Part shown: in pieces, positions 16,323 through 46,355 of the stretch | How the letters are laid out: each line of letters begins with the position of its first letter | Numbering within the stretch: the stretch's first letter is position 1 | Assembly: GCA_016873675.1 (NCBI GenBank) | Contig: VGWG01000005.1 | Location: 5,648-69,647 of the forward strand | DNA from: Lentisphaerota bacterium | Lineage (GTDB): Bacteria; Verrucomicrobiota; Kiritimatiellia; RFP12; JAAYNR01 | Direction of reading: 5' to 3' | DNA: 64,000 bases | Notes under the pieces: model-generated | Seen by the model: the letters and a program-made list of their open reading frames with translations, nothing else | The model's database searches: none | Told to the model about the DNA's origin: nothing | Program-made: the position numbers and the translations under genes

Positions 16323-16324
16323 CC

Positions 16325-17106: not shown

Positions 17107-17116
17107 GAGACGCCCC

Positions 17117-20893: not shown

Positions 20894-20989
20894 TGCATCT
20901 CTCCGGGTGCCTGCAGAACCGACGAAGGAAATGTTGCAATCGCCTCGTAGGGTAACACCCCATCGCCAAAAAAAAGCACGCCGTGCATC

Positions 20990-22042
20990 ATGACGCCCAT
21001 GACCATAGACATCGACAAGCGATCCACGGTGCTCATGCTGTTGACACTGCTCCTTCCCGCACTGACACGTGGCGCGGGCTCGGACATCTCGGCAGGCACC
21101 TTCGGCGTGTACATGGAGAACGACATGTATGCCGGCACGGACCACTACTACACCAGTGGTTCCAAGCTCACGTGGAGTTCTCCCAATCTCGAAACGCTCA
21201 GCGACTCCCCGTATGCCAGCCCGTTCCTGCCGATGTTTGATCGGTTGCCCTACATCAACGCAAGCGACTATCAAAAGAACCTCGTTTTCGCACTTGGGCA
21301 GAACATCTACACGCCCGACGACACCGAGTCGTCTGGGCTGCTCGGCGATGATCGCCCCTACGCGGGCTGGCTTTACATGGGGCTCGGCATCGTGTGGAAA
21401 GATGCGCGGGTGAGAAACTCGCTCGTGCTGAGTATCGGCGTCGTCGGCCCATGGGCCTACGCGCATGAAACCCAGCGCCTGATCCATGATGCGCTTGATC
21501 AAGATCATCCGAATGGATGGGAGAATCAACTACACAATGAACTCGGTGTGAACCTCGCGTACGAACGGATTTGGCGTCTTCCCAAGCTCACGAAACGCAG
21601 CGGGCTTGACTGGGAGCTCCTGCCCCATGGAGGCGCGGTGGTAGGAAACGTCTATACCTATGTCAACCTCGGCGCCGAACTGCGCGCTGGCTTGAATCTG
21701 CCCGATGATTTCGGAACCGGAGTGATCGGTCCGGTGGCCACCACCTCGACGCCCGTCGATGGCATGATGGGCGCAGATCGTTCCCGCTTTGATCTGGGGA
21801 TGTATGTCTTCGCCCGAGCCGATGGCCGCGCGGTGGGACGCAACATTTTGCTGGATGGAAACACCTTTGGGAGTGGCCCATCCGTGGGGCATAATCCCTT
21901 CGTCGCTGATCTCAGCCTCGGCGTGGCCCTGAACATTAAGAATACCAAGATCGCCTACGCCTCTGTCTATCGGACCCGTGAGTTCGACAGCCAGCAGGAC
22001 GCCCAAATCTTCAACATGGTCTCACTCAACTGGACCTTCTAA
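20990..22042 (+). CDS. lpxR: LpxR-family outer-membrane lipid A 3'-O-deacylase (DUF2219)
   Basis: Signal peptide, then GVYMENDMYAGTDHYYTSG (LpxR starts ENDxxxxxDxxYTxG), an OMP beta-barrel with C-terminal ...SLNWTF. Confidence 0.6.
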   Translation: MTPMTIDIDKRSTVLMLLTLLLPALTRGAGSDISAGTFGVYMENDMYAGTDHYYTSGSKLTWSSPNLETLSDSPYASPFLPMFDRLPYINASDYQKNLVFALGQNIYTPDDTESSGLLGDDRPYAGWLYMGLGIVWKDARVRNSLVLSIGVVGPWAYAHETQRLIHDALDQDHPNGWENQLHNELGVNLAYERIWRLPKLTKRSGLDWELLPHGGAVVGNVYTYVNLGAELRAGLNLPDDFGTGVIGPVATTSTPVDGMMGADRSRFDLGMYVFARADGRAVGRNILLDGNTFGSGPSVGHNPFVADLSLGVALNIKNTKIAYASVYRTREFDSQQDAQIFNMVSLNWTF

Positions 22043-25100: not shown

Positions 25101-28100
25101 GCTTCGGTCGCCTGCAACTGGCGCAACACGAGTTGGCTGTGGGACCAGGCCATTTCGAACGCGCGCGCGGCGAAACTGGAATCGCGGTACTTATCGATCA
25201 GTACCAGCGCGGCCGCGCGCGTGTCGGCCATGCCGGAAATGATGTGCCACGTGGCAACGGTGTCGGCGGCGATGACCATGCCGCATCGGATGGCGACGAT
25301 CGGATCGAGCGTCGCGCCCTCCGTGCCCGACAGCGGCCCGGGGGCGTCAAACGCCGCTGGCGCGTCCACCGTGCGATTCCGTCCGATAAACCGCGCCCGG
25401 TCCGTCTCGTAGGAGGCGTCGCCGGCCAGCGCGCCCTGGGTGGTCATCAGGTGGAACATCCACGGCGGCTCCTCGCCCGGCGCACGCGGTCGGCGCATAC
25501 AGAGAATGGCCTGCGTGTCGCGGAGAATCTCCGTGCGCACGAACAAATTGCTGAAGGCCGGGTGCGCGAGATCCGCGTCCGGGGGCGCAAGCACGATCTC
25601 TGCGTAACTCGTCAGTTCGATGGTGCGAAGGCGGGATGAAAAATTCGTGAGTGTCACACGGCGGACTTCAACGTCATCCTCGGGTGACACGGCGATTTCC
25701 GTGTGCGCTTCAATCTCTTCGTCGCGCCGGCGATACTCGGCGCGCCCCTGCAGAAAAATCGCCTCGCCGTATTTCGCTGCGCGCCGCGTCGGTTGGTAAG
25801 CCGTTGACCACAGCACGCCCGTGACGGTGTCGCGCACATAGCAGAACAGGCCCCATCCGTCGCGAGTGGCGTCCTCGCGCCAGCGCGTGACCGCCAGATT
25901 TTTCCAGCGGCTGTACCCGCCGCCCGTGTGGGTGACCATCACGTGATAGCGTCCATTGGACAGCAGATGCACATGCGGCAGCGGCGTGTCCGGCGAGGGG
26001 AAGACGCGCATGAGGGCGGCGGCCGCCTCCGGCGGCTGGCGCGCGGCGCTCACCTCGGCCGCGTGGGGATGCAAGGGGGAGGCGATCTTAGGGATACGCT
26101 CGTGCAACAGCAATTCCGCCGCCTTGAAAGCCGGGTCGGAAAGAAACCGGCGCTGCATCGGCCGGTCCAGCAGCAGGTGCGTCAGCGCCAGCAGGCTCAT
26201 CCCCTGGTGATGCGCCATGTAACTGCGCAACAGGACCCCCTCCTTGCCCTGCGGCATGCGCGCGGGCGAGAAATCAATCGCTTCATACAATCCGTGAGCG
26301 CCGCCGTATCCTTTCTCCACCAGCGTCTGAAGATTTCGGCAGGCCTCGCGGGGCATGACCATCAACGCCAGTGCCGAGGCGTACGGCGCGACAACCAGAT
26401 TCTCCGCCAGGCCGCGCTTGAACCCCAGTCCCGGCACGCCGAAAGCCCCATACTGGTAGACCCCCTGCGCGTCGGTGGCGTTGTAGCACGATTCGGAAAT
26501 CCCCCACGGCACACCGCGCTGGCGTCCGTATTCAATCTGCCGGGCCACGACCGCCCGGTAGGATTGATCGAGCAACGTGTGCTCGTACGTCGGCATCACG
26601 AGCAGGGGCATCAGGTACTCGAACATCGAACCGCTCCACGACAACAAAGCCATCGCGCCGACGTGGGTGGTCACCTGTCGGCCCAGGGCAAACCAATGCT
26701 CCTGCGGCAGCCGATCCTGGGCGATGAGCATGAAACTGGCCAAACGCGCCTCCGAGGCGAGCAGGTCGTAATACGCCGGATCGCGGCGCCGCTCGCTGAC
26801 GTTGTAGCCAATCACCAGCAAAGCGCGGGCGGGATCGTAGAGAAAAGCGAAGTCCATCTCCGCCTGCGCGGCACAACTCCGGGCGAGCCGATCAATCCGA
26901 CGGAGGCGCTCGGCGGCGCGTGGTCCACCGGCGGCCTCGCCGGCCAAATCCTGCAGCGTCGGAATGCCTTCGAACGGGCGGGTATCGGGCACGAGCAACA
27001 GCAAATCGTCGCGCACAGCCCGGCACTGCCGCGCGAATGCGTGCCGCCACGCCTGCCGGTTCGCATCACCGTCGGCGGGCAGCGTCTCGATCTCACGGCC
27101 GAGTTCCTGAAGCAGCGTCATCGTGGCGGACAGGGTCGCCGGCGGGGTCGCATTCAGTTTCGTCCGCAGGGACGCGAGGGGCGGGGCACCCGCCCTGTCC
27201 AGCGTGTCCCGCAGTCCAGAGAGCAGCCGGGGCGAGACGACGGGCTGCGTTTTCAACTCCAGCAGACCGCTGCGCAAGACGGCCAACGCCCCGGCGAGGT
27301 TACCGCTGTCCACGCTCGACACATAAAGCGGCCGAAGCGGCACCAGCGTGCGCGTGTCGTACCAGTTGTAGAAATGGCCATGGTAGCGTTCGAGACGCTC
27401 CATAGCGCCAAGGGTCTGTTCCGTGCGTTCGAGCAATTCACCGGTGGAGAGGTAACCAAAATCCCACGCCGACAGATTGGCCAGCAAGGCCATGCCGATA
27501 TTGGTCGGCGAGGTTCGTGAGGCGACGAGGCGCGTCGGGGTTTCCTGAAGATTGTCAGGCGGCAGCCAGTTTTCCTGAGCGTTGACGAGCGTTTCGAAGT
27601 AGCTCCAGGTTTGGCGGGCCAGCCCGTGCAGGAACACGTGTTGAGCCTCGGAGAGGACCGGTTGGGGGGTCGTCAGCGGCCGGCTGATCCACCAGCCGAC
27701 GGCGGGCGCGATGAGCCACAGCAGCAGCAGCGGCCCGCTGAAGAGCAACTCGGCGGGATGCGCCAGCGCCAGCCACACGCCGGCGATCGCTCCGAACAGC
27801 GGCGCGACCCACATCTCCGAGAAGAAGTCAGCCGGCGTCTTGCAGCCGTTGCGCCGCGCATAGCGCGGCGTGTGCCAGAGCAACAGGCCTCGCCGCGTGA
27901 ACGCCATGCGACCGGCGGAAACAAGGATCGCGTCCAGATGGACCACGGCCCGATACGGCAGGCTGCAAAGCGCAAGCGCGGCCTCAGCCCCCTGTCGGCC
28001 AATCGCTCCGAAGATGGCGTTACGATGGACGGCCCACGTCCGTTCGCGGGGTTTTTGAAGCGCTTCAACCAACACGGTGACGCCCACGGGCAGCAGCAGC

Positions 28101-30670
28101 AGAGCGAACGCAAACAGCGTCCAATACCCCGTCAGCGCGGGGACGCCCATCACCCAACCGCCGAGCAGCAGGAGAAACAGGGCCGGGGGCACCAGACTTC
28201 GGCGCAGGTTGTCGAAGATCTTCCACCACGCGAGCGCGGTCAGCGTATTGGGCACCCGCTTGCTGGACGACCCAAGCACCCGCGGCAGGAGCCATCCGGC
28301 GATCTGCCAGTCGCCACGAATCCAGCGATGACGCCGGCTCATCTCGGCGGTGAAACTCGCGGGATGGTCCTCATGCAACTCCACGTCCGTCACCAATGCC
28401 GACCGGGCATAACCGCTTTCCACCAAGTCGTGACTCAGAATCAGGTTTTCCGGAAACCGCCCGGCTGTGGCCTGCCGGAAGGCGTTTACGTCATAAAGAC
28501 CTTTGCCCACATACGACCCCTCCGCAAACAGGTCCTGGTACACGTCCGACACTTCGCGCGTGTAGGGATCAATGCCCGCTTCGCCGACGCTGAGCTGGGC
28601 AAAGCGCGAACGATGGGCCGCGAGCAGACTGATGGGCGTGCGCGGCTGTAGGATGGCATACCCCTCGACCACGCGCCCGGTGGATGGATCGAAGCGCGGT
28701 CGGTTCAGCGGATGCACCAGCGTGCCGACGAGTTTGCGGGCGGCATCGCGCGGCAAGGCGGTGTCTGTGTCCAACGTCAACACGTAGCGAATCGTGGGCA
28801 GCACCGCCAGATCGGCGATGATCTCGGAGAACGGCGTGCGCGGCCCGCCGCAGAGCAGCGCGTTGAACTGTTCCAGCTTGCCCCGTTTGCGTTCGTAACC
28901 CATCCAGAGGCGCTCGTGCGGGTTCCAGACCCGCGGCCGGTGAAAGAGGTAGAAGCCGGGCGCGTCCACGAAACCATACCGCTCGTTCAACGCGCGGATC
29001 CCGTCACGCACCAGACGCACCAGTTCTGCGTCGTCGTCTTGCGTCGCGGCGGGCGCATCACGAAAGTCGGTCAGCAGTGCGAAGAACAGATGCGGATCGC
29101 GATTTCCCAGAAATCGGACCTCCAGTCCTTCCAGTAAATCGGCGACGGCCCGTGCATCGGTCAGGAGCGTGGGGATCGCCACCAGGGTGCGATCCGTGTC
29201 TGGTATCCCTTTCGATAAGTCCATCCGCGGCAGGGCGCGTGGCCCGACCAAGAGACTCGTCGCCAGGTTCACCAGCGCGACGGCCATCTGGGACGCCACG
29301 AGGATGCCCAGCGCCGCTAGCAGCCAGACCCGCCAGTCGCCCCAGCCCAACAGCCGGAGCGGCTCCAGCAGCGGGCTGGTGGCGACCGCCGTGACCCCAG
29401 CCAGCGCTCCGACATAGAGACCGACCGGAAAGCGGCGCGCCATCCGCGAAAATGACCGGCGCAGCGACCAGCGGACGCGGACGAGGCGCTCCAGCCGATC
29501 ACACCCCTGGTCGATGAGATAGTAGCCCACATGGGCGGTGCGCGACAGCGGGCCGTCACGGCGCAGAGCTTCCGCGGCAAGATCGACGACCGTGCGGGCC
29601 ACCGTCTCCTCGGCGGTTTGGGACCGCCGCGCCAGATCTTCGACGACATGGCGATACCGGTCGCGCGTCAAGAAGTCCATGTCGGCATACACGCCGAGAG
29701 GATCGGCGCGCAGCGCCTGTTCGGTCGCGCTCGACGTTTCCACGAAGGTCCGCCAGTTGATCGCGCCCAACGCGCGCAGACTGCCGATGCAGTTGCCGAT
29801 GGAAACCTGATCAGCCGCCTGGCTCTGGGTGTCGGCCCGCTGCAGGCGCTCGCGGGTCACGCCCTGCTCGGCGAGCCGGTGTTGCACCCAGCTCTCGACG
29901 GTAGCCATGGCCGGCCCTTGCCCCTGCAATCGTTCGCAGAATTCCTCGACAAACGGGCTGCTGAACGACGGCTCGGACTCTGCCATCTCCGCCAGCACCC
30001 GCAGGACCGTCGCTGAATTCTCCTCCGTCGCCGTCAGCAGGCGAGCGGCCCACCGTTTGGCCAGAACCAAATCGCTACGACGTCCGGCGATATGCGCCGA
30101 GACGCGTCGCAAGTTCTCGATCAGCCCCAAACGCAGCATGATCGGCACGGCCCACAGCTCGCCCAGGATCAGCGTTTTGACGGACTGGTAGGCCGCAACG
30201 AAGTGGCTGACGTTTTCGGCGTCCACGCGTCCGTCAGCGTGAGCGATCAGCTCCAGGGCGATGTCATACACGCGGGGAAATCCGGCCGCCGCGCCATGCG
30301 CCAGTCGGGGCAGCTCCCGACTGTAGGTCCGAGGGAAGTGCAGACGCGCGAGACGGATTTGCTCCTCAACCAGGTAAAAATTATCCAGGAGCCACTCGCC
30401 TGCCGGGCTGCCACGCCGCCCTTCGGCCTCCGCGCCGGTCATCATATCATAGGCCTGAATCAGCATCCGTTCGTTGTCCGCCAAACGCGGCAGCAGCCGG
30501 TTCGGACCCGACTGCGGGTCTAGCTGATGTCGCCCCGCCAGGGCAACGGCATGCCGACGCAACTGCTCGACGCTGAACAATTCGGCGCGCAGAGGCCCTT
30601 CCGTCGCGCGAGCGCGCGGCGAAGACCGCCTTTCTTGCCACCGTGTGCGACCTAACCGTGTCGTTTGCAT
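22151..30670 (-). CDS. cgs: Cyclic beta-1,2-glucan synthase (Cgs/NdvB/ChvB), 2839 aa
   Basis: A single giant ORF with an N-terminal multi-TM region, a GT84 glycosyltransferase core (…LDTDT…, QPR, RWIRGDWQ) and a C-terminal GH94-like glucan phosphorylase domain. Size and architecture are diagnostic. Confidence 0.85.
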   Translation of the reverse strand: MQTTRLGRTRWQERRSSPRARATEGPLRAELFSVEQLRRHAVALAGRHQLDPQSGPNRLLPRLADNERMLIQAYDMMTGAEAEGRRGSPAGEWLLDNFYLVEEQIRLARLHFPRTYSRELPRLAHGAAAGFPRVYDIALELIAHADGRVDAENVSHFVAAYQSVKTLILGELWAVPIMLRLGLIENLRRVSAHIAGRRSDLVLAKRWAARLLTATEENSATVLRVLAEMAESEPSFSSPFVEEFCERLQGQGPAMATVESWVQHRLAEQGVTRERLQRADTQSQAADQVSIGNCIGSLRALGAINWRTFVETSSATEQALRADPLGVYADMDFLTRDRYRHVVEDLARRSQTAEETVARTVVDLAAEALRRDGPLSRTAHVGYYLIDQGCDRLERLVRVRWSLRRSFSRMARRFPVGLYVGALAGVTAVATSPLLEPLRLLGWGDWRVWLLAALGILVASQMAVALVNLATSLLVGPRALPRMDLSKGIPDTDRTLVAIPTLLTDARAVADLLEGLEVRFLGNRDPHLFFALLTDFRDAPAATQDDDAELVRLVRDGIRALNERYGFVDAPGFYLFHRPRVWNPHERLWMGYERKRGKLEQFNALLCGGPRTPFSEIIADLAVLPTIRYVLTLDTDTALPRDAARKLVGTLVHPLNRPRFDPSTGRVVEGYAILQPRTPISLLAAHRSRFAQLSVGEAGIDPYTREVSDVYQDLFAEGSYVGKGLYDVNAFRQATAGRFPENLILSHDLVESGYARSALVTDVELHEDHPASFTAEMSRRHRWIRGDWQIAGWLLPRVLGSSSKRVPNTLTALAWWKIFDNLRRSLVPPALFLLLLGGWVMGVPALTGYWTLFAFALLLLPVGVTVLVEALQKPRERTWAVHRNAIFGAIGRQGAEAALALCSLPYRAVVHLDAILVSAGRMAFTRRGLLLWHTPRYARRNGCKTPADFFSEMWVAPLFGAIAGVWLALAHPAELLFSGPLLLLWLIAPAVGWWISRPLTTPQPVLSEAQHVFLHGLARQTWSYFETLVNAQENWLPPDNLQETPTRLVASRTSPTNIGMALLANLSAWDFGYLSTGELLERTEQTLGAMERLERYHGHFYNWYDTRTLVPLRPLYVSSVDSGNLAGALAVLRSGLLELKTQPVVSPRLLSGLRDTLDRAGAPPLASLRTKLNATPPATLSATMTLLQELGREIETLPADGDANRQAWRHAFARQCRAVRDDLLLLVPDTRPFEGIPTLQDLAGEAAGGPRAAERLRRIDRLARSCAAQAEMDFAFLYDPARALLVIGYNVSERRRDPAYYDLLASEARLASFMLIAQDRLPQEHWFALGRQVTTHVGAMALLSWSGSMFEYLMPLLVMPTYEHTLLDQSYRAVVARQIEYGRQRGVPWGISESCYNATDAQGVYQYGAFGVPGLGFKRGLAENLVVAPYASALALMVMPREACRNLQTLVEKGYGGAHGLYEAIDFSPARMPQGKEGVLLRSYMAHHQGMSLLALTHLLLDRPMQRRFLSDPAFKAAELLLHERIPKIASPLHPHAAEVSAARQPPEAAAALMRVFPSPDTPLPHVHLLSNGRYHVMVTHTGGGYSRWKNLAVTRWREDATRDGWGLFCYVRDTVTGVLWSTAYQPTRRAAKYGEAIFLQGRAEYRRRDEEIEAHTEIAVSPEDDVEVRRVTLTNFSSRLRTIELTSYAEIVLAPPDADLAHPAFSNLFVRTEILRDTQAILCMRRPRAPGEEPPWMFHLMTTQGALAGDASYETDRARFIGRNRTVDAPAAFDAPGPLSGTEGATLDPIVAIRCGMVIAADTVATWHIISGMADTRAAALVLIDKYRDSSFAARAFEMAWSHSQLVLRQLQATEAEAQVYVELAGAVLFANPRLRADAGLLVRNRLGQPGLWAFGISGDLPIVLLRIADVHRIERVREVLKAHAYWREKGLKTDLIILNEDFSGYRQVLQEQVLSLIAAGTEAHRVDKPGGIFPRRSEQLSEEQRILLQTVARVIITDSAETLTGQVERQAPLERVMPRFTPSRSPLTAAASALPPRERIFFNGLGGFTPDGREYVISLAPGRATPAPWSNVLANARIGSVVSESGGAYTWVDNAHEFRLTPWHNDPVGDLSGEAFYIRDEETGQFWSPTPLPARGSGTYVCRHGFGYSVFEYAQLGIESELWTYVAQDAPVKVVTIKLRNRSGRTRRLSVTGYWELVLGQWRHTNLMHVVTSLDPATGALFARTVYNREFADKTVFVNVSDAARTVTGSRAEFLGRNGMMASPAAMRRARLSGRTGAGLDPCAAMQAGIALADGEEHELVFTLGAGNDVEEAHQLIRRFGDPAGARLALESVWEFWKRTLGVVYAETPDPALNLLVNGWLEYQVLAARYWGRSGYYQSGGAYGFRDQLQDTMALLHAAPWIAREHLLRCASRQFSEGDVQHWWHPPSGRGVRTHCSDDYLWLPYATCRYVTMTGDTGVLDERAPYLDGRPVNADEESYYDLPRLSGKSGTLYEHCVLAIEYGLRFGEHGLPLIGSGDWNDGMNLVGAHGRGESVWLAFFLYHVLQRFEELARRRHDTVLADRCREQAARLQRNIEAHGWDGEWYRRATFDDGTPLGSAANEECQIDSLAQSWAVLSGAAEPARARQAMEHVYQRLVRHDDRLIRLLDPPFETSAMEPGYIKSYPPGVRENGGQYTHGAIWAVMAFAQLGETERAWELFSRLNPIRHTANAAGVECYKVEPYVMAADVYGAVPHVGRGGWTWYTGAAGWMYRLLVETLLGVRLEAEQLRLNPQLPRAWTALKLHYRYRDTFYHIHVTRSAAALARPFRVVLDGLEQADGIVPLVDDRREHAVAVSVC

Positions 30671-30742
30671 ATCTTTCCTTCATCCAAGCCTTGCCGACTG
30701 AAGGTTACAACACCAATCACGCAAACGATATGGGGTAAAACC

Positions 30743-31456
30743 CTATTTCACCTGCGATGCCGCGAAATCCCAATTTACCAGATGGTCCAGGAATGCCTGG
30801 ACGAAATCTTTGCGGCGGTTCAGGTGGTCGAGATAGTAGGCGTGCTCCCAGACGTCACAGGTCAGGAGCGCGGTTTGCCCGTGCGCGAGAGGCGTATCCG
30901 CATTAGACGTCTTGATGATCTTCAGCGTGTCGCCCTCCTGCACCAGCCAAGCCCATCCGCTCCCGAACTGGGTCAGGGCGGCTTCGCTAAAGGCGGCCTT
31001 GAAGGCATCGAAACTGCCGAATGTGGCGGTGATTCGCTCCGCCAGCTTACCGGTCGGCGCGCCTCCGCCATTGGGCTTCATGCTCTTCCAGAAGAACGTG
31101 TGATTCCAGACCTGGGCGGCGTTGTTGAACAGACCCGCCTGATCCGGTTTGCCCGCCGTCTGCCGAATGATCTCTTCCAGAGGCAAACCGGCCATCTTCG
31201 TGTCAGCCGCGAGTGTGTTCAGATTGTCCACATAGGTCTGATAGTGCTTGCCGTAGTGAACGCTCAGCGTCCGCGCCGATAGGTGCGGCTCCAACGCATC
31301 CTGCGCGTAGGGCAGCGTCGGCAGTACGAAAGCGGGATCGTCTCCGCCTGCGGCCAGAGTCTTCGCGGGTACCTGCGCATTCGCTGCGAGCAACAGGCCT
31401 GTCAACGGAAGCAGGCTCACCATCGCCAACCTACTCTTACTCAAATGCGGATTCAT
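30743..31456 (-). CDS. sodB: Periplasmic iron superoxide dismutase
   Basis: An N-terminal signal peptide, then LPYAQDALEPHLSARTLSVHYGKHYQTYV...FNNAAQVWNHTFFW...DVWEHAYYLD. The AAQVWNHTFFW motif indicates Fe-type. Confidence 0.88.
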   Translation of the reverse strand: MNPHLSKSRLAMVSLLPLTGLLLAANAQVPAKTLAAGGDDPAFVLPTLPYAQDALEPHLSARTLSVHYGKHYQTYVDNLNTLAADTKMAGLPLEEIIRQTAGKPDQAGLFNNAAQVWNHTFFWKSMKPNGGGAPTGKLAERITATFGSFDAFKAAFSEAALTQFGSGWAWLVQEGDTLKIIKTSNADTPLAHGQTALLTCDVWEHAYYLDHLNRRKDFVQAFLDHLVNWDFAASQVK

Positions 31457-31521
31457 GTGTGGATCTCCTTGTTTGGATTTGATGATACCTAATTACTGCA
31501 ATGCAATAGTTTAGACACACA

Positions 31522-34622: not shown

Positions 34623-35186
34623 TCAGTTCTCCTTTTTCATCTGACTCGGTTTCATTCTTCTCGCCGGGCGTGGCGCCCAAGTTTGACCATCTCCAGAACG
34701 AGCAACGGGATGGCTCCCACGGCGAGCAGCAACAGGCAATCGGTGAATGGCATGTGTGACGTCTTCAGAAAGCGCCCCAGCATCGCGCTGTGTTGGCTCC
34801 ACACCTGAAGGGTGAAGGAAAGGGCAACCACGAGCATGAGATTGACGTTTGTGAATAGGGAGATGCGCCAGACCGGCTTCGCCGAGCAGGCCGGAGATAA
34901 CACCGGCCGCGATGAGAATCCAGATCAGGAGGCTCTTGAACTGGCCGAGCACAATCCGAAGCGGGCTGATGGGTTTGCCTTCCTTCAGTTCGTTCGGGCC
35001 GCTGGTCGAAAGGCGCTGCGCCGCTTCCTGCGAAGAGAGCCCAACCGCCGCGGACTCAAGCCGGCTCAGCACATCCTCAGCCGACTGGCTGTGCCAAGCT
35101 GTGTTCGCCGGCTGTGCGGCGAACCCCTCGCTATCTGCGGGCAGAAGGCTGTAAGTCGTTGGGTCTGCACCAACCGGATTGTTCAT
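34623..35186 (-). pseudogene. P-type cation ATPase remnant: the N-terminal ~80 aa joined out of frame to the C-terminal ~80 aa
   Basis: The 35186-downward frame gives HSQSAEDVLSRLESAAVGLSSQEAAQRLSTSGPNELKEGKPISPLRIVLGQFKSLLIWILIAAGVISGLLGE (Cation_ATPase_N plus TM1). The second frame (34903-34652) gives ...FTNVNLMLVVALSFTLQVWSQHSAMLGRFLKTSHMPFTDCLLLLAVGAIPLLVLEMVKLG, the last TM helices of P2-type ATPases. About 2.2 kb of the expected core (DKTGT, TGDN and others) is missing. Confidence 0.65.
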
Positions 35187-37023: not shown

Positions 37024-37422
37024 GATTCCCTCTCTTTTCTTGTTTCGAACGTTGGTTCTTTCGTTGGTGACGAGAGCGTACACCATCGGCTGAACACACG
37101 GGTATAGGGTGTAACCCTACGCGCGTATCCCCGGCGTGTCGATCAACATGGCGCCACCCTCCAGAACAAGCAACGGGCGTCGGGAGGTGGTAGAAAAACC
37201 CTCGGGACGACGCTATGAATCATGGCGGGGCCGCCCGATGCGTGGCACTGCACACACACCCAGTCGCCCACACACGGCAGGTCACTGGCGGACTCGACTG
37301 CGAAACGGAACTTGCCCGCGAGCTCCGCAAAGGTGTCGGCCCCTGTGAAAGATATTCTGGACATCTTTACCCGTTTCTGGCACGGTAGCCTCATGCATTC
37401 CCTGCTCCCATCCGGTTCCGGG

Positions 37423-38721
37423 ATGATTTCGGCCAATGCGGACCGATGCCAGCCGAAATGTGATTTGTTATCCATAGCCTTTCAAGCCGTGAGGCGGATC
37501 GCAGAAACACTGATTGTCTTTGCAGTCGGGGCCGGGAGCGTGAGGACCCTGGCCGCCGGGGAGGATCCCTTTGCGGACGTTGTGGCCGCGCCACAGGTCG
37601 TGGTGAACGCCGCCGCCCTGTCGGAACCGCAGTGGACGGATAATCTGCTCCTCCGCAAGGAGGTGTATCTGCTGTTTGCCACGAGTGACGAGACGGACGG
37701 CATCATGTCGCGACTGTCGGCGGGGTTTGAGGTGCAGAAGCGATTCTCCACGGCGACGCGCACGCTGGCATCGGTCGACTATCAGGGACGTCTCGTTTAC
37801 CGGGATCGCATGCGGGATACATCTGTCGACCCGATGGGGCATGACGCATCGCCGTGGGAGTACGAAACGCATAATGCGTATCTTGACTTCTATAACCTGT
37901 TTGGCGGCCCCGGTCGCTTCAATCTCCGGTGCGGCTATTTCTATCAGCCTTTTGGCCTCAACCAGCAGACCGATACGCATGGGACGATCCTGCAACTGTC
38001 CAATGACCGCCTGTTTGGTTCGGATCGCGACGGTCAGGCGATTCTGTACGGCACGTTGACGGACGATCTGGATTACACCGTCGGCTACCTGCTGGGCGCA
38101 GGACCGGATTTCAAGCTGGCGGGTCAGACGGGCATGGGGATCGCACGCGTGGCGCTAAACAGTGATTGGCTCTTCCGCCGCGGACTTGAGGTCGGGATGA
38201 GCGTTGCGGCCGGCGAGCGTGTTTCCGAGTACGACCGGATGCGCATGGAATCGTCTGTGACGAACAACCCGGCCATGGCACGACGCGCCGATACCCCGGC
38301 GCGCAACGCGATGGCCGGGTCAATGATCGGCAACGACCCCCTGATTACGACCTTCCGCGCGGGTCTGGACGTGCGCAAACGGATGGATTCCACGATCGGC
38401 CCCTTTACGCTGACCGGCGAGGCTGCGATGGGCACGGATGACGGCGATCCCATCCTGTCGGGACTGACGCAGGCGGACTGGCTCAATCCCGGGCGGCGCT
38501 GGGGCGTGGCGGCACACGTGCAATACTTCCGGCGCGAGGGTTCAGAGGAACACGACCATGCGGAGGAATCGCGGGCAACCTTTGTGCTTACGCGGTACTT
38601 CCGAAACGACGTGGGCAATGCGTCCTTGCACTGGGTCGCCCTGGCGGTGGCGCAAGATCTCCAGCCGTCTGACGGTCCAGACGACACGCTGGCCATGGTT
38701 CACTATTACCGGTATTGGTGA
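37423..38721 (+). CDS. Putative outer-membrane beta-barrel protein (hypothetical)
   Basis: A signal-like N-terminus (RRIAETLIVFAVGAGSVRTLAA), alternating hydrophobic/aromatic strands, and a C-terminal ...HYYRYW aromatic terminus typical of OMPs. The start is uncertain (37393 or 37423). Confidence 0.4.
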   Translation: MISANADRCQPKCDLLSIAFQAVRRIAETLIVFAVGAGSVRTLAAGEDPFADVVAAPQVVVNAAALSEPQWTDNLLLRKEVYLLFATSDETDGIMSRLSAGFEVQKRFSTATRTLASVDYQGRLVYRDRMRDTSVDPMGHDASPWEYETHNAYLDFYNLFGGPGRFNLRCGYFYQPFGLNQQTDTHGTILQLSNDRLFGSDRDGQAILYGTLTDDLDYTVGYLLGAGPDFKLAGQTGMGIARVALNSDWLFRRGLEVGMSVAAGERVSEYDRMRMESSVTNNPAMARRADTPARNAMAGSMIGNDPLITTFRAGLDVRKRMDSTIGPFTLTGEAAMGTDDGDPILSGLTQADWLNPGRRWGVAAHVQYFRREGSEEHDHAEESRATFVLTRYFRNDVGNASLHWVALAVAQDLQPSDGPDDTLAMVHYYRYW

Positions 38722-38726
38722 GCGTG

Positions 38727-39425
38727 ATGACTGCACACATGCTGCTGTTGACAGGGATTCTGGCGTTGGCTCCGATGATGTCGCGCGCGGCGGTCGGATG
38801 TACGCTCAGCAATCCGGCGCGAGACCTCCAGTCCCTTTTCCCTGAGATGACCTCGTATCGCGAGGATGTGAAGGAACTGCCGAAGTTCCCGCAGGGGCGG
38901 GAGCTGTATGAAGCGCTCCACGCACGCATGGGCGGCGAACTCGATCCGGTCTACGAAGCCTTCGATACGCCTTACACCCTCTATTCGGTCTTCAAAGGCG
39001 AGGAACGGATTGGCTACGTCCACGGCGTCAATGTGCCGGGGCGCGGCGGCGTGATCCAGGTCTTTGTGTCAGCCGAGCCCGCCACAGGGGCGATCAGCAA
39101 GCTCTTTTTCCAGCGCCTGGAGAGTCCGGGCGGCGCGATCCTGCGGGCCCGGGAGACGCGCGATCAGTTCACCGGACTTTCGCTGGCCGATTTCTACAAG
39201 CACGATTATTATGCGGAGGTCGAGCCCGGCAACACGGCCGACAAGATCGCCCGGATCAAGCCGCCGGCCGCGCTGCCCGAGGATGCGAAACCGGATTGGG
39301 ACGCGACCTTGCGCGGACTTCGCAAGAATCTGATCCTGCTGGACATCTTTGCGTTCGACCGGCGCTATGAACCGTTTTTCAAACGTGCCGAAGAGGCGCG
39401 CCAAAAGAAAGGGAACAAACCATGA
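38727..39425 (+). CDS. Secreted protein with possible degenerate FMN-binding-domain-like core
   Basis: A signal peptide, then GYVHGVNVPGRGGVIQVFVSAEPATGAISKLFFQRLESPGG, which resembles the G..G.I.V.V....G.I....ETPG pattern of FMN_bind domains. The downstream S/TGAT flavinylation motif is not intact (PGNTADKIA). The assignment is weak. Confidence 0.3.
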   Translation: MTAHMLLLTGILALAPMMSRAAVGCTLSNPARDLQSLFPEMTSYREDVKELPKFPQGRELYEALHARMGGELDPVYEAFDTPYTLYSVFKGEERIGYVHGVNVPGRGGVIQVFVSAEPATGAISKLFFQRLESPGGAILRARETRDQFTGLSLADFYKHDYYAEVEPGNTADKIARIKPPAALPEDAKPDWDATLRGLRKNLILLDIFAFDRRYEPFFKRAEEARQKKGNKP

Positions 39426-39829
39426 AACCTATCCGCAGCGTCGCATGGATGCTATTGGCCACAGCCGTCGCGGGCGTGCTGATCGCCGGATGCGGGCGCA
39501 AGGCCGGTCACGGAACGCATTTTGGCGAGCCGTTCACATCCGCGCCGGTTGTGACGATTGCGCAACTGCTGGAAACGCCGGAGGCCTTTCAGCGGAAGCC
39601 GGTGCGCGTGCAGGGAACCATCGAACGGCAGTGTCCCATGGCGGGGTGCTGGTTCTTCATACACGACGGGCAGGGCCGTTCCATCAAGGTGGAACTTGGC
39701 GACTACCTGCCCAAGTTGCCGCAAAACATCGGCAACATCGCCGAGGCTGAAGGCGAGTTGATCAAAAAAGGGGCTGCCTACGAATTCATCGGCACACGCG
39801 TAACGTTCACAAAAAAGGACGCTCCATGA
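39422..39829 (+). CDS. Small lipoprotein with a CPMAGC pair
   Basis: Lipobox LIAGC, 135 aa, with QCPMAGCWFFIHDGQGRSIKVE. It is translationally coupled to both neighbours. Confidence 0.4.
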   Translation: MKPIRSVAWMLLATAVAGVLIAGCGRKAGHGTHFGEPFTSAPVVTIAQLLETPEAFQRKPVRVQGTIERQCPMAGCWFFIHDGQGRSIKVELGDYLPKLPQNIGNIAEAEGELIKKGAAYEFIGTRVTFTKKDAP

Positions 39830-41073
39830 CGTTCACGGCTTTCGCATGGAAAAATCTGGTCCGCCGTCCGGTGCGCACGGCGTTGACGGCGGGCGGGGTT
39901 GCGCTGGCTGTCGCGGTGTCGGTGAGTCTGGGCGGGTTCAATCTGGGCTACAAGCGGGCCATTGCCGGGAGCATTGAGCAACTCGGTTTTCAGGTGATGG
40001 TCATGGCCAAGGGTTGTCCGTATGAGGCGGCGACGATGATGCTCAAGGGCGGCACGGGTTTGCTCTATCTGCCCGAAGATGCACACGCGAAGATCAAGAA
40101 TGACCCCGATATTGAGGCGATCACTCCGATCTTCATCGGCATCGCCGAAAAACAGGGATCGTCGATCGACGACGCGCCATCAGCCGCATCCTGGACCATC
40201 CTGTCGGGTGTGGACGAGGTTTCGTTCCGGGTGATGAAACCCTGGCTGACTTTCAAGCAGGGGCCTGGATATGACGGCGGGCGGTGGTTTTCTGCGGATG
40301 CGACCAATGAGGTGGTCATGGGGTTTGAGGCGGCGGAGTACGAGCAGCGCAAGGTGGGCGATGTGTTGTATGCATCCATCACGCCCAATGGCAAAACGGT
40401 GCCGGTGATGCATGCCTTCCGGGTGATCGGTGTGCTCGAGCGGAGCGGCTCCCAGGACGACGGCACGGTCTTTCTGCCGCTGAAGACGGCCCAGCAGATT
40501 TTTGGGCGCGAGGGGCAACTCACGATCATCGGCATCAAGCTGCGCGAGTTCAACGGCATCCGCATGCGCGAATTTGAGGGGCGATGGATGAGCATTCCCG
40601 AGGTGCAGGTGGTGAGCCTGGAGCAGGTGAAAGGCGCGCTGGTGTCGCTCGTCGGCACGGCGCAGACCATGGTGGCGGCGGTGGCCGTGATTGCTGTTAT
40701 TGTGGCGGTGATTGGCGTGATCAACGCGATTCTGATGAGTGTCTACGAGCGCATGGGCGAGATCGGCATCATGAAGGCCGTCGGTGCGACGCGCATTCAG
40801 ATCTTCCGGTTGATCTGGACGGAGACCTTGCTGATCTGTCTGGCCGGGGCGGTTGTCGGCTGCCTGCTGGCGGCCATGGGCGCCGGGGCCACGGATGCCG
40901 CGCTGCGCCATCTGTTGAACATCGGCGTGACGCAGGGGCTGGTCCGCATCACCCCGGGCCTGCTGGGCGCGGCTGTGTCGGGGTCCGTCATGCTCGGCTT
41001 GTTGGCGGGCATCTGGCCGGCGCGCCGCGCGGCGGAATTGCATCCGGTGGAGGCGATTCGCGCCAACGAATAA
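39826..41073 (+). CDS. ABC transporter permease, FtsX/MacB/LolC family
   Basis: An N-terminal TM, a large periplasmic MacB_PCD-like domain, then three C-terminal TM helices of the FtsX fold (…ILMSVYERMGEIGIMKAVGATR…). Confidence 0.75.
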   Translation: MTFTAFAWKNLVRRPVRTALTAGGVALAVAVSVSLGGFNLGYKRAIAGSIEQLGFQVMVMAKGCPYEAATMMLKGGTGLLYLPEDAHAKIKNDPDIEAITPIFIGIAEKQGSSIDDAPSAASWTILSGVDEVSFRVMKPWLTFKQGPGYDGGRWFSADATNEVVMGFEAAEYEQRKVGDVLYASITPNGKTVPVMHAFRVIGVLERSGSQDDGTVFLPLKTAQQIFGREGQLTIIGIKLREFNGIRMREFEGRWMSIPEVQVVSLEQVKGALVSLVGTAQTMVAAVAVIAVIVAVIGVINAILMSVYERMGEIGIMKAVGATRIQIFRLIWTETLLICLAGAVVGCLLAAMGAGATDAALRHLLNIGVTQGLVRITPGLLGAAVSGSVMLGLLAGIWPARRAAELHPVEAIRANE

Positions 41074-41083
41074 GGGGGCATCG

Positions 41084-41764
41084 ATGAACGGAGACGTGAT
41101 TGTCGCGGGACGTGGTCTGTGCCGCTTCTATCTGCGGGGCAGCGAAACGGTGCGTGCGCTCGATGGCGTGGATATCGATGTTCGCCCTGGCGAGTCCGTC
41201 TGCATTCTCGGGCCATCCGGTTCGGGAAAAACGACGCTGATCAATTTGCTTTCGGCTTTGGACGCGCCGACCGCCGGCACGCTGACCATCAATGGCCGGC
41301 GCGTCGACGGGCTGCCCGAAAACGAGCTGGTGAACATCCGGCGCGGCACCCTGGGGTATGTCTTCCAAAAATTTCATCTGATCCCGACGCTGACCGTGGC
41401 CGAGAATGTCGCCCTGCCTCTTTTATTCCTGGGGCGGAAAGCCGATCCAGACGCTCTGGCGCGGGTACTGGATGCGGTGGGCTTGGCTGACCGGGCAACC
41501 CATCTTCCAAAAGAACTTTCGGGCGGCCAGATGCAACGGGTGGCCATCGGGCGGGCGCTTGTCACGGGGCCGCGCGTGCTGATCGCCGATGAGCCCACGG
41601 GCAACCTGGACAGTCAGACGGGCGGTGCGATCATGGATCTGTTTGTCAAGGCCGTGCGCGAGGAGGGCGTTGCGCTCGTGCTGACCACGCACAACCTGGC
41701 GCTTGCGTCCCGATGCGATCACCGTGTCACACTGGAAGACGGACGTGTGAAACAGGGCGCGTGA
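41084..41764 (+). CDS. ABC transporter ATP-binding protein (MacB/LolD type)
   Basis: Walker [12 protein letters not shown]-loop, signature [15 protein letters not shown], Walker [13 protein letters not shown]-loop TTHN. Confidence 0.85.
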
Positions 41765-43603: not shown

Positions 43604-44887
43604 CTATCCCGAAAACTTCGCCCGGTATGCCCAGAGGCCGAGCGCGGGGTTGCTAATGAAAAAGACCTCTTCTCCATCCGGCATCCGGTTCCAGCCATTC
43701 TGGAGCCGATCTAGATTGTAGCGCGCGGCCATCTCCGCGTACGGACTGGCATCAAACCCGACGGCGCGCACCGCGTCCAGTCCCATCCCGTCGCCCGGAC
43801 AATAGGTGATGTGGAAGCGGTCCTCCGACGAGCCGTGGATCAAATGGGCCGCCGCGCCCAGGTTGCCGCGCAGGTCCTCATTCTCCTCAACCGCCTTCAA
43901 CGTGGCGGGAGTTCCGCGATAGCCGTATTTGCGGATCAGCCCGTCGATCTTCGGGTCCTCACCGAATTCTTTGAGCGCCGGGGCGAGCACGACCAACTCG
44001 CCGCCGTCGGCGATCGCCATGCGCGTGCGGTAGATCGCCTTGTTGCCGAGCCAGGTGCTCTGAAACTCATGCGGATCGAGATAGACCACCACTTTCCGGG
44101 GCTCGCGTTCGAGCAGGTTGATGTTTACCCGGGCCGCCAGCGCGCAGGCCTCGCGATACACCTGCGCATCATCCCCGGCATAAAAACCGCGCAGATGCAT
44201 CTGCCGCGTGACGGCATCCTGCTCAACCACCGTGAGTATGTAAGTAATCGGCAGATCCTTTAAAAACGTCTCAACGGCCGTGTTGAAAAGCCGGCGCACC
44301 GGCGTATCAGCCCGGCCGAGGATGGTCTCCATGTTGCAGACCGCGCCCAAGAAGTGAGATTTGTTGATGATGTCCGCCCCGCCCGCGCCCACGACGATAT
44401 TCTTGGTGTAGTTGGCCATGCCGACCACCTCGTGCGGCACGACCTGCCCGATCGACACGATCAGGTCGTAACCCTTGAACAGCCGTTGGCTCACCTCCAC
44501 CCCGACCGAATACGCAACCTTGCCGCCGGAAAGCTCGGCGAGCAGCGATCCCGGAAGCTCGCCTGCGCGGACAATCCCGTTGCGCCAGTCATGCACCAGG
44601 AATGCCGTCAACGGAATCGTGTCGCCAAACATGAGGCGAAGCTGCTTCTCGGTCATGGCATTGTGCGTGCCCAGCGTCGGCATCACGTCCACCCGCACGC
44701 CCCGGGCCGTCAGCGCCTCGTAGGCCATCGCGGTGATCGGCCCCGCCTGCGAATTGAGACGGGTGTGATCCGGTGGCAGCAGAAGCACGCGGCGCAGGGG
44801 TTCGGGGCGCGAATCCAGGGTCTTTAACACCAGCGCGCGCAGTTCCTCGCTCGAAATAGAAACCTGTTCTCCGCACTGTATGATCAT
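43604..44887 (-). CDS. LarA-family (nickel-pincer-dependent) racemase/epimerase, DUF2088
   Basis: LLLPPDHTRLNSQAGPI, PTLGTHNAMTE and IGQVVPHEVVGMANYTKNIVVGAGG follow LarA N-domain motifs (PDxTR, GTH, the PHE...G pattern). It is 427 aa from the Met at 44887. The ORF-track start at 45088 is an extension. Confidence 0.65.
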   Translation of the reverse strand: MIIQCGEQVSISSEELRALVLKTLDSRPEPLRRVLLLPPDHTRLNSQAGPITAMAYEALTARGVRVDVMPTLGTHNAMTEKQLRLMFGDTIPLTAFLVHDWRNGIVRAGELPGSLLAELSGGKVAYSVGVEVSQRLFKGYDLIVSIGQVVPHEVVGMANYTKNIVVGAGGADIINKSHFLGAVCNMETILGRADTPVRRLFNTAVETFLKDLPITYILTVVEQDAVTRQMHLRGFYAGDDAQVYREACALAARVNINLLEREPRKVVVYLDPHEFQSTWLGNKAIYRTRMAIADGGELVVLAPALKEFGEDPKIDGLIRKYGYRGTPATLKAVEENEDLRGNLGAAAHLIHGSSEDRFHITYCPGDGMGLDAVRAVGFDASPYAEMAARYNLDRLQNGWNRMPDGEEVFFISNPALGLWAYRAKFSG

Positions 44888-44903
44888 AGGCGCAGGACTC
44901 CCG

Positions 44904-46355
44904 TCACACGACGTAGGTGGATGCGGCGGTGCTGCCGCCGCGGCCGGTCCAATTGGTGTGGAAGAACTGGCCCCGCGGCGCATCCGTGCGCTCATAGGTA
45001 TGGGCGCCGAAATAATCGCGCTGGGCCTGCAGCAGGTTCGCCGGCAGTCGCGCGCAGCGGTAGCCGTCATAATAGGCCAGCGCCGCACTGATGGCAGGGG
45101 TCGGAATCCCCAGCTTCACGGCCATGCGGACGACCCGCCGCCAGCCACCCTGGGCGCGCCGCATCTTGCCGCTGAAGAACGGGTCGAGCAGCAGGTTGGT
45201 CAAACCCGGATTGTGGTCAAACGCCTTCTTGATCTTGCCGAGAAACACCGAGCGGATGATGCAGCCGCCGCGCCACATCAACGCGATGCCGCCGTAGTTG
45301 AGGTTCCAGCCGTAGGACTGGGCGGCCGCGCGCATGAGTTGATACCCCTGCGCATAGCTGACCAGCTTCGAGGCGTAGAGCGCCTGCTTCAGGTCATTGA
45401 CAAAGCGCTGACGGGAACCGGTGAACGTCGTCGCTGCCGGGCCGGCGAGCTGCGCCGAAGCCGCCACACGCTCGTCCTTGAGCGCCGAGAGACAGCGGGC
45501 GAAGACCGCCTCGCCGATCAGCGTGAGCGGCTGGCCTTCGTCGAGCGCGGCCACGGCCGTCCATTTTCCGGTGCCCTTCTGACCGGCGGTGTCCAAAATG
45601 TTCTCCAGCACCGCTTCGCCCGCCTCGGTCCGGTACCCCAGGATGTCGCGGGTGATCTCGATCAGGTAGCTGTCCAGTTCCCCCGTGTTCCAGTCGGCAA
45701 AGATGGCGTGCATCTCATCGGCGGTGAGGCCGAGGCCATCCTTCATCACCTGGTAAACCTCGCAGATCATCTGCATGTCGCCGTATTCGATGCCGTTGTG
45801 AACCATCTTCACAAAATGACCGGCGCCGCCCTCGCCGACCCACTCGCAGCAGGGCTTGCCGGAGTCGGTCTGCGCCGCGATCTTCTGAAAGATCGGCTTC
45901 ACGGCGGGCCAGGCTGCGGGTGAACCGCCGGGCATGATCGACGGGCCAAGCAGCGCGCCCTCCTCGCCACCCGAGACGCCCGTGCCGACATACAGCAGCC
46001 CCCGGCTTTCCACGTATTGCGCGCGGCGAATGGTGTCGGGAAAATGACTGTTGCCGCCGTCAATGATAATGTCGCCGGGCTCGAGATGGGGAATGATCTG
46101 CTCGATGAATTCGTCCACGGCCCGGCCCGCCTTGACCAGCATCATCACCTTGCGCGGACGCTCCAAGCTGGCGCACAACGCCGCGATGCTGTGGCACCCG
46201 ATGAACTTCTTGCCGGCCCCGCGTCCGCCGATAAACGCATCCACCTTCTCAACCGTGCGGTTGAACACCGCCACCGTAAACCCCTTGCTCTCCATGTTGA
46301 GCACCAGGTTCTCGCCCATTACCGCCAAGCCAATCAAGCCGATGTCTGCCTTCAT
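44904..46355 (-). CDS. gnd: 6-phosphogluconate dehydrogenase (decarboxylating)
   Basis: MKADIGLIGLAVMGENLVLN (Rossmann fold), GTGVSGGEEGA, and WRGGCIIRS. Confidence 0.9.
   Translation of the reverse strand: MKADIGLIGLAVMGENLVLNMESKGFTVAVFNRTVEKVDAFIGGRGAGKKFIGCHSIAALCASLERPRKVMMLVKAGRAVDEFIEQIIPHLEPGDIIIDGGNSHFPDTIRRAQYVESRGLLYVGTGVSGGEEGALLGPSIMPGGSPAAWPAVKPIFQKIAAQTDSGKPCCEWVGEGGAGHFVKMVHNGIEYGDMQMICEVYQVMKDGLGLTADEMHAIFADWNTGELDSYLIEITRDILGYRTEAGEAVLENILDTAGQKGTGKWTAVAALDEGQPLTLIGEAVFARCLSALKDERVAASAQLAGPAATTFTGSRQRFVNDLKQALYASKLVSYAQGYQLMRAAAQSYGWNLNYGGIALMWRGGCIIRSVFLGKIKKAFDHNPGLTNLLLDPFFSGKMRRAQGGWRRVVRMAVKLGIPTPAISAALAYYDGYRCARLPANLLQAQRDYFGAHTYERTDAPRGQFFHTNWTGRGGSTAASTYVV

Follow-up and report, generated by a model that had tools for sequence, protein, structure and literature searches.

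An uncharacterised five-gene MacB-type envelope operon with non-canonical partners and a predicted role in copper handling

A 64,000-nt stretch of a Lentisphaerota bacterium genome (contig VGWG01000005.1, positions 5,648 to 69,647; the window) carries five + strand open reading frames (ORFs) between 37423 and 41764. These genes, designated g1 to g5, form an uncharacterised operon for a MacB-type ATP-binding cassette (ABC) envelope system whose partners are non-canonical and for which a role in copper handling is predicted (Table 1). A 5-nt gap separates g1 from g2, the g2-g3 and g3-g4 junctions are 4-nt overlaps (both ATGA), and a 10-nt gap precedes g5. The tightly linked, same-strand set with overlapping junctions that was described in an earlier note on this DNA is borne out by the ORF coordinates. 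All five labels given there (outer-membrane barrel, secreted protein resembling flavin mononucleotide (FMN)-binding proteins, Cys-pair lipoprotein, FtsX-type permease and ABC ATPase) also hold. Pfam and NCBIfam recognise g3, g4 and g5 only; g1 and g2 match no family in either collection, so the first two labels are supported at the level of the fold. The ATG start of g1 is shared with the JGI gene call P0385, which is 100% identical over 432 amino acids (aa); an alternative in-frame GTG start at 37489 yields a more classical signal peptide, MRRIAETLIVFAVGAGSVRTLAA, followed by GEDPF. The g2 ORF mechanically starts at a TTG (38715), from which its residues are numbered here, and the close 232-aa homologues begin at the ATG at 38727.

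Table 1. Genes and candidate sites of the five-gene operon, with the identity of each protein to its orthologues across 80 species-level loci.
Feature	Position	Strand	Description	Identity to window protein
g1	37423..38721	+	Outer-membrane 16-stranded porin-like beta-barrel	35-62%
g2	38727..39425	+	Secreted, 232 aa, RnfG/NqrC (FMN_bind) fold	54-86%
g3	39422..39829	+	135 aa, membrane-tethered OB-fold-like DUF4920 protein; lipoprotein in the window	28-83%
g4	39826..41073	+	415 aa, MacB-type (type VII ABC) permease	59-91%
g5	41084..41764	+	226 aa, ABC ATPase of the LolD/FtsE/MacB nucleotide-binding type	57-86%
g2 D196-A-T-L-R-G201	39300..39317	+	Inferred counterpart of the NqrC/RnfG SGAT-LTS flavinylation site	
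g3 C71-P-M-A-G-C76, then W77	39632..39649	+	Candidate thiophilic-metal site	
g4 G54-FQVMVMAKGCPYEAATMM-73	39985..40044	+	Periplasmic motif just after the first transmembrane helix; candidate soft-metal site on the motor	

None of the flanking genes is related to the module. A csbD-like gene and one gene for a small membrane protein lie upstream on the opposite strand, and recO and a SurA-like gene lie downstream. Promoter and terminator scans around the operon returned nothing above shuffle expectation that bears on the module, and an Rfam scan detected no regulatory RNA near it.

The module is conserved as a unit, with informative differences in conservation among its proteins (Table 1). One genome per GTDB species was scanned, 115 relatives were found, and the best 80 of these 115 were used as species-level loci, in which gene order was checked by tblastn and blastp with the five window proteins as queries. 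Co-occurrence, which the earlier note had proposed as a check, was assessed in these loci: the order g1-g2-g3-g4-g5 was observed in 80 of 80 loci, 68 with all five genes and 12 ended by a contig edge. Because this order is shared by all 80 loci, the arrangement is far beyond chance, and the five genes are a real operon that is kept together in metagenome-assembled genomes (MAGs) labelled as about ten phyla. According to submitter labels, the carriers belong to Kiritimatiellia/Lentisphaerae, Verrucomicrobia, Acidobacteria (Bryobacterales, Terriglobia and Solibacteraceae), Elusimicrobia, Nitrospira, Planctomycetota, Myxococcales, Bdellovibrionales, Omnitrophota and Riflebacteria. The module is broken in a single lineage among the 80 loci, where g1 and g2 are spaced by ~1.7 kb (L001/L012 8485-9978 and L010; GCA_942493055.1 and a related MAG); in L001 the gap is filled by a gene for a GH10 glycoside hydrolase, and this insert was counted in three loci. 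Close homologues of g2 number 1237, all of them unannotated and mostly from Kiritimatiellia, Verrucomicrobiota and Lentisphaerae MAGs, and in a 1.84-billion-representative library the family amounts to only 172 clusters at 50% identity. A tblastn search with g2 against 72,556 plasmids returned no match, which gives no sign of a mobile metal-resistance island.

More distant variants retain parts of the module. In L087 (8001-9605), an N-terminal g2-like domain is fused to DUF3179 (DUF, domain of unknown function) beside a DUF4920-FtsX-ABC operon; a literature search for DUF3179 returned only selenoprotein surveys and one genome paper. In L088 (1435-2781), the g2 family is duplicated in tandem within a 448-aa protein. 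A variant at 39% identity (L090 789-4859) encodes a YtkA-domain protein, a 330-aa protein, a g2-like protein, an FtsX permease and an ABC ATPase; the 330-aa protein has no Pfam family and was not compared with g1. The YtkA-domain protein, with GSCCNSPG and M..M..H motifs, replaces the DUF4920 protein in this variant, and the g2-like protein and the g4 motif persist. Such a swappable small periplasmic partner is as expected of a substrate chaperone.

The g4 and g5 proteins constitute a MacB-type ABC motor. g4 matches MacB_PCD (PF12704, 62.7 bits) and FtsX (PF02687, 65.9 bits), both above cut-off, and displays the topology of a MacB-type permease, with a first transmembrane helix (TM1), a periplasmic domain of ~230 aa and three further transmembrane helices. 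In a sequence search of the PDB, its nearest solved relatives are MacB (5gko, E = 5e-20), Spr0695, YtrF, LolF and LolC/E. g5 is the cognate ATPase: it matches ABC_tran (PF00005) with 121 bits, and its Walker A, signature, Walker B and H-loop (THN) elements are intact in the translation. The curated equivalog models are not reached by either protein, with g5 scoring 212 bits for LolD (TIGR02211, cut-off 307.75) and below every equivalog cut-off, and g4 scoring 82 bits for lolCE (TIGR02212, cut-off 362.45), 72 bits for MacB (cut-off 966) and 39 bits for FtsX (cut-off 255). The match to a standard Lol or Mac system that would have told against the earlier note (lolCE, 82 versus 362 bits; MacB, 72 versus 966 bits) was thus not found. 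Motors of the MacB family (MacB, LolCDE and FtsEX) do not move substrate across the inner membrane, and convert ATP hydrolysis into movement of the periplasmic domain.

The periplasmic stretch that follows TM1 in g4 reads GFQVMVMAKGCPYEAATMMLKGG. Met58, Met60, Lys62, Cys64, Tyr66, Glu67 and Met72 are kept in at least 95% of the orthologues, which leaves an invariant periplasmic MxM-x3-C-x7-M pattern, and GCPYEAAT is retained even in the variant operon at 39% identity. E. coli MacB is not known to have a GFQVMxMAKGCPYEAATMM-like insert. All conserved Cys residues of the module are extracytoplasmic, namely Cys29 of g2, Cys71 and Cys76 of g3, and Cys64 of g4, which is flanked by Met58, Met60 and Met72.

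g3 is a small protein with a conserved Cys pair. It matches Pfam DUF4920 (PF16267) with 26.5 bits against a gathering cut-off of 25, precomputed PF16267 matches exist for most of its orthologues, and it is 100% identical to the NCBI MAG protein 'DUF4920 domain-containing protein [Lentisphaerae bacterium]'. A profile search returned weak matches to the OB folds of CcmE and RPA14, and no relatives were found in PDB sequence and profile searches. Among the Cys, His, Met, Trp, Tyr and charged residues of g3, conservation in at least 95% of 78 orthologues is reached by Cys71, Cys76 and Glu110 alone. Across the family the motif reads QC[PKT]xxGC[WYF]F, often with CxxMGC, and the CPMAGC of the window protein lies inside the invariant QC-x3-GC; together with the lipobox LIAGC, it confirms the label of a Cys-pair lipoprotein. 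A lipobox is present in 26 orthologues, all but one from loci labelled Lentisphaerae, Verrucomicrobia or Kiritimatiellia, and in most of the other 56 orthologues the anchor is an uncleaved hydrophobic N-terminus. With either type of anchor, g3 is predicted to be always membrane-tethered, and in most phyla to the inner membrane.

g2 adopts an FMN_bind-type fold of the RnfG/NqrC kind, so the complete lack of FMN_bind-fold similarity that would have spoken against the earlier note was not observed. At the profile level, the searches that had been proposed for the 232-aa and 135-aa proteins assign g3 to DUF4920, and do not return FMN_bind for g2 or NosL. The Pfam FMN_bind profile does not match g2, and no Pfam family was found for this protein at E ≤ 1 or E ≤ 10. 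A cross-phylum alignment displays an invariant A-[IV]-G-C-T-L-x-N-P-A-x-D-L after the signal sequence, which includes Cys29. The A-[IV]-G-C-T-L portion could be a lipobox variant or could provide an N-proximal functional Cys; Cys29 fits a relaxed lipobox, and many orthologues are charged at position -5, more like the c-region of a signal peptidase I substrate. Conservation in at least 95% of the orthologues also extends to His103, His163 and numerous, densely placed Asp, Glu, Tyr, Arg and Lys residues.

The segment K-P-D-W-D-A-T-L-R-G of g2, at the start of a long C-terminal helix (residues 189-212), appears to match the position of the flavinylation site in NqrC and RnfG, a placement based on the sequence pattern and the helix position and made without structural alignment. 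Substrates of the flavin transferase ApbE carry the motif D-x-x-[S/T]-G-A-[S/T] (PMC12052999; PMC8238504). This canonical motif was not found in g2, which keeps A-T-L and has K-P-D-W-D-A-T in place of the missing -6 Asp and -2 Gly. Of 81 orthologues, 37 have Ser, 34 Thr, 9 Ala and 1 Val in the acceptor column (Thr198), so that 88% carry Ser or Thr and 10 carry Ala or Val. A blastp search with E. coli Ftp/ApbE returned no match (E < 1e-3) in the 64-kb window or in the loci within 10 kb on either side of the module. Because Ser/Thr is not kept in all members, the canonical residues are missing and no ApbE is encoded nearby, covalent flavinylation is unlikely to be essential to the family; most members could still be flavinylated, as ApbE could be encoded elsewhere in the genome. 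The redox (FMN) role that the earlier note had considered for g2 is thus backed by the fold, lacks the canonical motif, an invariant Ser/Thr and a nearby ApbE, and is weak overall.

The fold of g1 is that of a 16-stranded general porin and not that of TolC. Its C-terminus is YYRYW, and its best-conserved stretch, PFGLNxQTDTHGTxLQLSN, is located in a low-confidence loop. No relatives of g1 were found in PDB sequence and profile searches.

The neighbourhoods of the orthologous modules link the operon to copper. All ORFs within 7 kb of the module were clustered, and seed searches were then extended over whole loci. In 13 species, the module is immediately preceded on the same strand by a CsoR-family gene (PF02583, 96 bits); one more species has such a gene at a distal position. 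If a genome contains one or two such genes, chance alone would, by a rough estimate, bring one together with the module less than once across the 80 loci. CsoR is a repressor that is released by Cu(I), and expression therefore rises under copper excess. All 14 linked CsoR proteins carry the pattern Y-C...H-x-x-x-C, which corresponds to the C-H-C ligands with which M. tuberculosis CsoR senses Cu(I). A palindrome, ATACCCC-N3-GGGGGTAT, is located just upstream of csoR (for example ATATACCCCTTGGGGGTATAT in L020), 10-25 nt before its start codon (L002 8420-8440; equivalents in L015, L019-L024 and L026-L028), and is often followed by a second GGGGGTAT half-site that overlaps the csoR start. The palindrome is essentially the operator consensus published for Streptomyces and Bacillus CsoR. 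A relaxed form of it, TACCC-N(1-9)-GGGTA, was found only 12 times in the 1.2 Mb that the loci span, invariably preceding a csoR gene, and 11 of these 12 genes head a csoR-...-g1-g5 operon. Judged by sequence, the orthologous loci headed by csoR, not the window, thus combine the two hallmarks of a CsoR regulon, a C-H-C repressor and a GC-rich palindromic operator at the operon promoter.

Several other neighbours recur. A secreted protein of small size that carries a CPV...Y[IV]CCxGC pattern is encoded between csoR and g1 in 10 loci, with 2 further loci encoding it at another position; a by-eye resemblance of this CPV...CCxxC protein to YHS/TRASH domains was not adopted, with no significant Pfam match and only Ta0938 at E = 0.047. 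Immediately before g1 in 17 acidobacterial-type loci (L033, L035, L038, L040-L042, L051, L052, L058, L061, L062, L067, L069, L072, L075, L081 and L083) lies a gene for a small, unannotated, lipoprotein-like secreted family with the motif HPCCPxKPAPLPDDCARPGC, a C-terminal FHQxLI and no Pfam match. Multicopper oxidase genes, often divergently transcribed, occur in 10 loci, and two representatives were confirmed to contain all three Cu-oxidase domains of Pfam; in L084, genes for small His/Cys-rich proteins adjoin the oxidase gene. A secreted Met/His-rich protein of 125 aa is encoded in 7 loci, in some directly after g5, and P1B-type ATPases are encoded in 2 loci. Overall, at least one recognised copper gene is present within 10 kb in 27 of the 80 loci, or in 37 when the acidobacterial Cys-rich family is counted. 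In the window, an inverted repeat with the core TAGGGT-GTA-ACCCTA (37098-37126) lies between the divergent csbD-like gene and g1; its polarity is opposite to that of the CsoR operator, it is next to the csbD-like gene, and it is not claimed as a CsoR site.

None of the known systems that were compared accommodates the module in full. In function, the module comes closest to CusCFBA; in architecture, it comes closest to MacAB-TolC and to the FtsX-type ABC genes of P19/FTR1 clusters. Like MacAB-TolC, whose MacB is the best solved relative of g4, the module combines a MacB_PCD and FtsX permease, with a large periplasmic domain between TM1 and TM2, with an operon-encoded outer-membrane component, and its ATPase is a separate LolD/MacB-type protein. 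Unlike MacAB-TolC, it contains no MacA/HlyD-type adaptor, its g1 is a general porin instead of TolC, it includes two extra conserved periplasmic proteins (g2 and g3), and g4 falls far short of the NCBIfam MacB cut-off. The absence of the usual membrane-fusion protein, which the earlier note had pointed out, extends to all loci examined: no HlyD/MacA adaptor is encoded within g1-g5 in the window or the loci, no membrane-fusion-like cluster was found among the recurrent neighbours, and the operon includes no gene for TolC, either in the window or in the loci examined.

The proposed job of the module resembles that of CusCFBA, the periplasmic removal of Cu(I) under copper control, in which a small periplasmic metal chaperone of beta-barrel type supplies an energised pump whose exit is in the outer membrane. 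However, no component is homologous (hhalign probability of about 0.1% for g3 and CusF), the module would use ATP through an ABC motor whereas Cus uses proton-motive force through a resistance-nodulation-division (RND) pump, its ligands are Cys-based instead of Met/His, and its exit is a porin instead of a TolC-family duct. P19/FTR1 clusters (C. jejuni cj1660-1665 and E. coli fetA-F) contain FtsX-type ABC genes, and they share with the module an adaptor-less ABC transporter of this type that is accompanied by extracytoplasmic FMN-binding or thioredoxin-like proteins in a metal-homeostasis operon. FMN-bind and thioredoxin-like accessory genes have been described in these clusters (PMC8238504). 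In contrast, the module is linked to copper and not iron, its g3 is DUF4920-like and not of thioredoxin fold, and it has a dedicated porin; neither P19 (PF10634) nor FTR1 (PF03239) was found in the Pfam-annotated contexts or among the recurrent neighbour clusters. g2 differs from RnfG and NqrC, to which it is only 11-18% identical, in lacking a Pfam FMN_bind match, the canonical flavinylation motif and a linked ApbE, and no other Rnf or Nqr subunits were seen in the annotated contexts or recurrent neighbours.

The analogy that the earlier note had drawn with the Nos accessory proteins is retained in its logic and not in homology. The NosDFY-NosL-NosR/X system likewise combines an ABC ATPase, a copper-linked lipoprotein and an FMN_bind-fold envelope protein; however, the module is of MacB type whereas Nos is of ABC-2 type, none of the five proteins matches NosL, NosD or NosY (Pfam, NCBIfam), and nosZ was not seen in the window or the annotated contexts. 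LolCDE and FtsEX belong to the same ABC superfamily, operate by periplasmic mechanotransmission without substrate passage through the inner membrane and have membrane-tethered periplasmic partners, but these partners differ from those of the module, and the scores are far below the curated cut-offs.

The copper-linked neighbours (CsoR and its operator, oxidases and ATPases) point to periplasmic copper handling. The reading that we favour, tentatively and at slightly less than an even chance, is that the module is an envelope machine dedicated to a thiophilic metal, with Cu(I) the likeliest, and that it acts in the periplasm and not across the inner membrane. The Cys pair of g3 would capture periplasmic Cu(I), and g3 would then dock on g4 and present the ion to its Met/Cys site. 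ATP binding and hydrolysis by g5 would drive a MacB-style conformational change of the periplasmic domain and force the release of the tightly bound ion, which g2 might take up or whose passage into the g1 porin it might gate, leading to exit from the cell. The gene order (g1-g2, then g3-g4-g5) and the predicted anchoring are compatible with a pair at the outer membrane and a trio at the inner membrane; the relay itself, like its direction and the part played by g2, is a proposal. A more specific version, which we regard as possible and hold with less confidence, is that the module represents a new class of trans-envelope detoxifier for copper or soft metals, in which a MacB-type motor that has a periplasmic Met/Cys site of its own uses ATP to strip Cu(I) from a membrane-tethered Cys-pair chaperone for exit through a dedicated porin, with g2 as a repurposed RnfG/NqrC-fold helper whose flavin attachment has been lost or changed.

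Several observations weigh against the copper reading. No copper gene lies within 10 kb of the module in the window or in about two-thirds of the loci, and no CsoR operator is present in the 64 kb of the window. The involvement of a metal, which the earlier note had guessed, is accordingly supported by CsoR and its operator, multicopper oxidases, P1B ATPases and Cys/Met/His-rich proteins at orthologous loci and by none of these next to the module in the window. The CsoR association is evidence of regulation and not of substrate. Alignment of g3 with E. coli CusF by hhalign gave a probability of 0.09%, which indicates no sequence relation. A general-porin barrel is not a sealed exit duct, which leaves directional export via g1 unexplained, and the many invariant polar residues and the RnfG/NqrC fold of g2 suggest a cofactor or catalytic role that the metal relay does not use. 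Literature searches for DUF4920 and for CsoR, FtsX, MacB and copper terms found no published description of the module or of DUF4920 in the searched library.

Four alternatives were weighed. The module could be a general MacB-type exporter or extractor of a non-metal substrate (a peptide, lipid, toxin or envelope component), with its copper control reflecting envelope-stress co-regulation in some lineages. MacB-family systems take diverse substrates, RND efflux genes lie near 8 loci, and the many loci that lack a nearby copper gene, the window included, are consistent with such a function. We nevertheless consider it somewhat unlikely, as the invariant extracytoplasmic Cys and Met residues in three components and the recurrent Cys/Met/His-rich secreted proteins in the operon, before g1 or after g5, would go unexplained, and no biosynthetic or precursor-peptide gene is conserved beside the module. 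We judge unlikely a periplasmic redox relay, in which g2 (through a flavin, covalent or not, or Cys29) and the g3 dithiol would hand electrons on to an acceptor in the periplasm, for example Cu(II), Fe(III) or protein disulfides, with the ABC transporter as an accessory, as in P19/FTR1 iron-uptake clusters. The RnfG/NqrC fold, the predominance of Ser/Thr in the inferred acceptor column with retention of the A-T-L of SGATLTS, the conserved g3 Cys pair and the FMN-binding or thioredoxin-like genes of P19 clusters (PMC8238504) argue for this relay, whereas Ala or Val at the acceptor site in 10 of 81 sequences, the missing canonical motif (PMC12052999), the lack of a Pfam FMN_bind match and the absence of ApbE from the window and from within 10 kb of the module in any locus argue against it. 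Moreover, no membrane protein for electron input is conserved beside the module, and the C-x4-C spacing of g3 on an OB fold differs from a thioredoxin-type motif.

The other two alternatives are copper delivery and Lol-like handling. Delivery of copper to cuproenzymes of the periplasm or outer membrane, as by NosL/NosDFY for N2O reductase and as opposed to detoxification, would accommodate the multicopper oxidase genes adjacent in 10 loci and corresponds to the earlier Nos analogy. It appears quite improbable: CsoR-type induction under copper excess fits detoxification better, most carriers have no adjacent cuproenzyme, and Nos homology is lacking. Least probable, and by our estimate very improbable, is a Lol-like handler in which g4 and g5 would extract g2, g3 or both from the inner membrane and deliver them to g1 in porin-lipoprotein biogenesis. 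LolCDE and LolF are among the solved relatives of g4, g3 in the window and possibly g2 carry lipobox-like signals, and g1 is paired with g2 in gene order; however, g4 scores far below the lolCE cut-off (82 versus 362 bits), the g3 anchor is hydrophobic and of non-lipoprotein type in most phyla, the g2 signal has charged residues near the Cys, which is atypical for lipoproteins, and the invariant Met/Cys motif of g4 would go unexplained.

Other features of the window were recorded outside the module. On the - strand at 34623-35186, a P-type cation ATPase remnant consists of Cation_ATPase_N (74 bits) and, from Cation_ATPase_C (37 bits), the final ~70 residues, in two overlapping reading frames within ~560 nt; the whole catalytic core is deleted, and the remnant is therefore probably a pseudogene. 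A tRNA gene (12289-12361, Rfam 69.8 bits) is directly followed by a type I restriction-modification system on the + strand (region 12289-20646), with HsdM at 12542-14098, HsdS at 15141-16322, HsdR at 18100-20646 and extra ORFs between them, which may be an island inserted at the tRNA. A 2842-aa ORF on the - strand (22151-30679) combines a GT2 domain with a glucoamylase-like domain and the supersandwich and catalytic domains of GH94, which is how cyclic beta-1,2-glucan synthases are built; beside it lie genes for an LpxR outer-membrane deacylase (20951-22042) and a signal-peptide-bearing Fe/Mn superoxide dismutase (30743-31492). A 494-aa ORF on the - strand (43604-45088) has only a weak match to the N-terminal domain of LarA (lactate racemase; 37 bits).

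Whatever its substrate, strict conservation of five genes, together with 54-91% identity of g2 and g4 across phyla, makes this module a well-defined and testable system, in which two of the five proteins belong to no Pfam family and a third is a DUF protein. If the copper reading is true, many environmental and gut-associated lineages, among them Kiritimatiellia, Verrucomicrobia, Acidobacteria, Elusimicrobia and Nitrospira, would use an ATP-driven periplasmic copper system that current annotation does not record. Such a finding would extend MacB mechanotransmission to metal ions, offer the first clue to the function of DUF4920 and suggest a use of the RnfG/NqrC fold that does not depend on flavin. 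The machine, if it is a new class, would join the P1B ATPases, the Cus-type RND pumps and the Pco/Cop systems.

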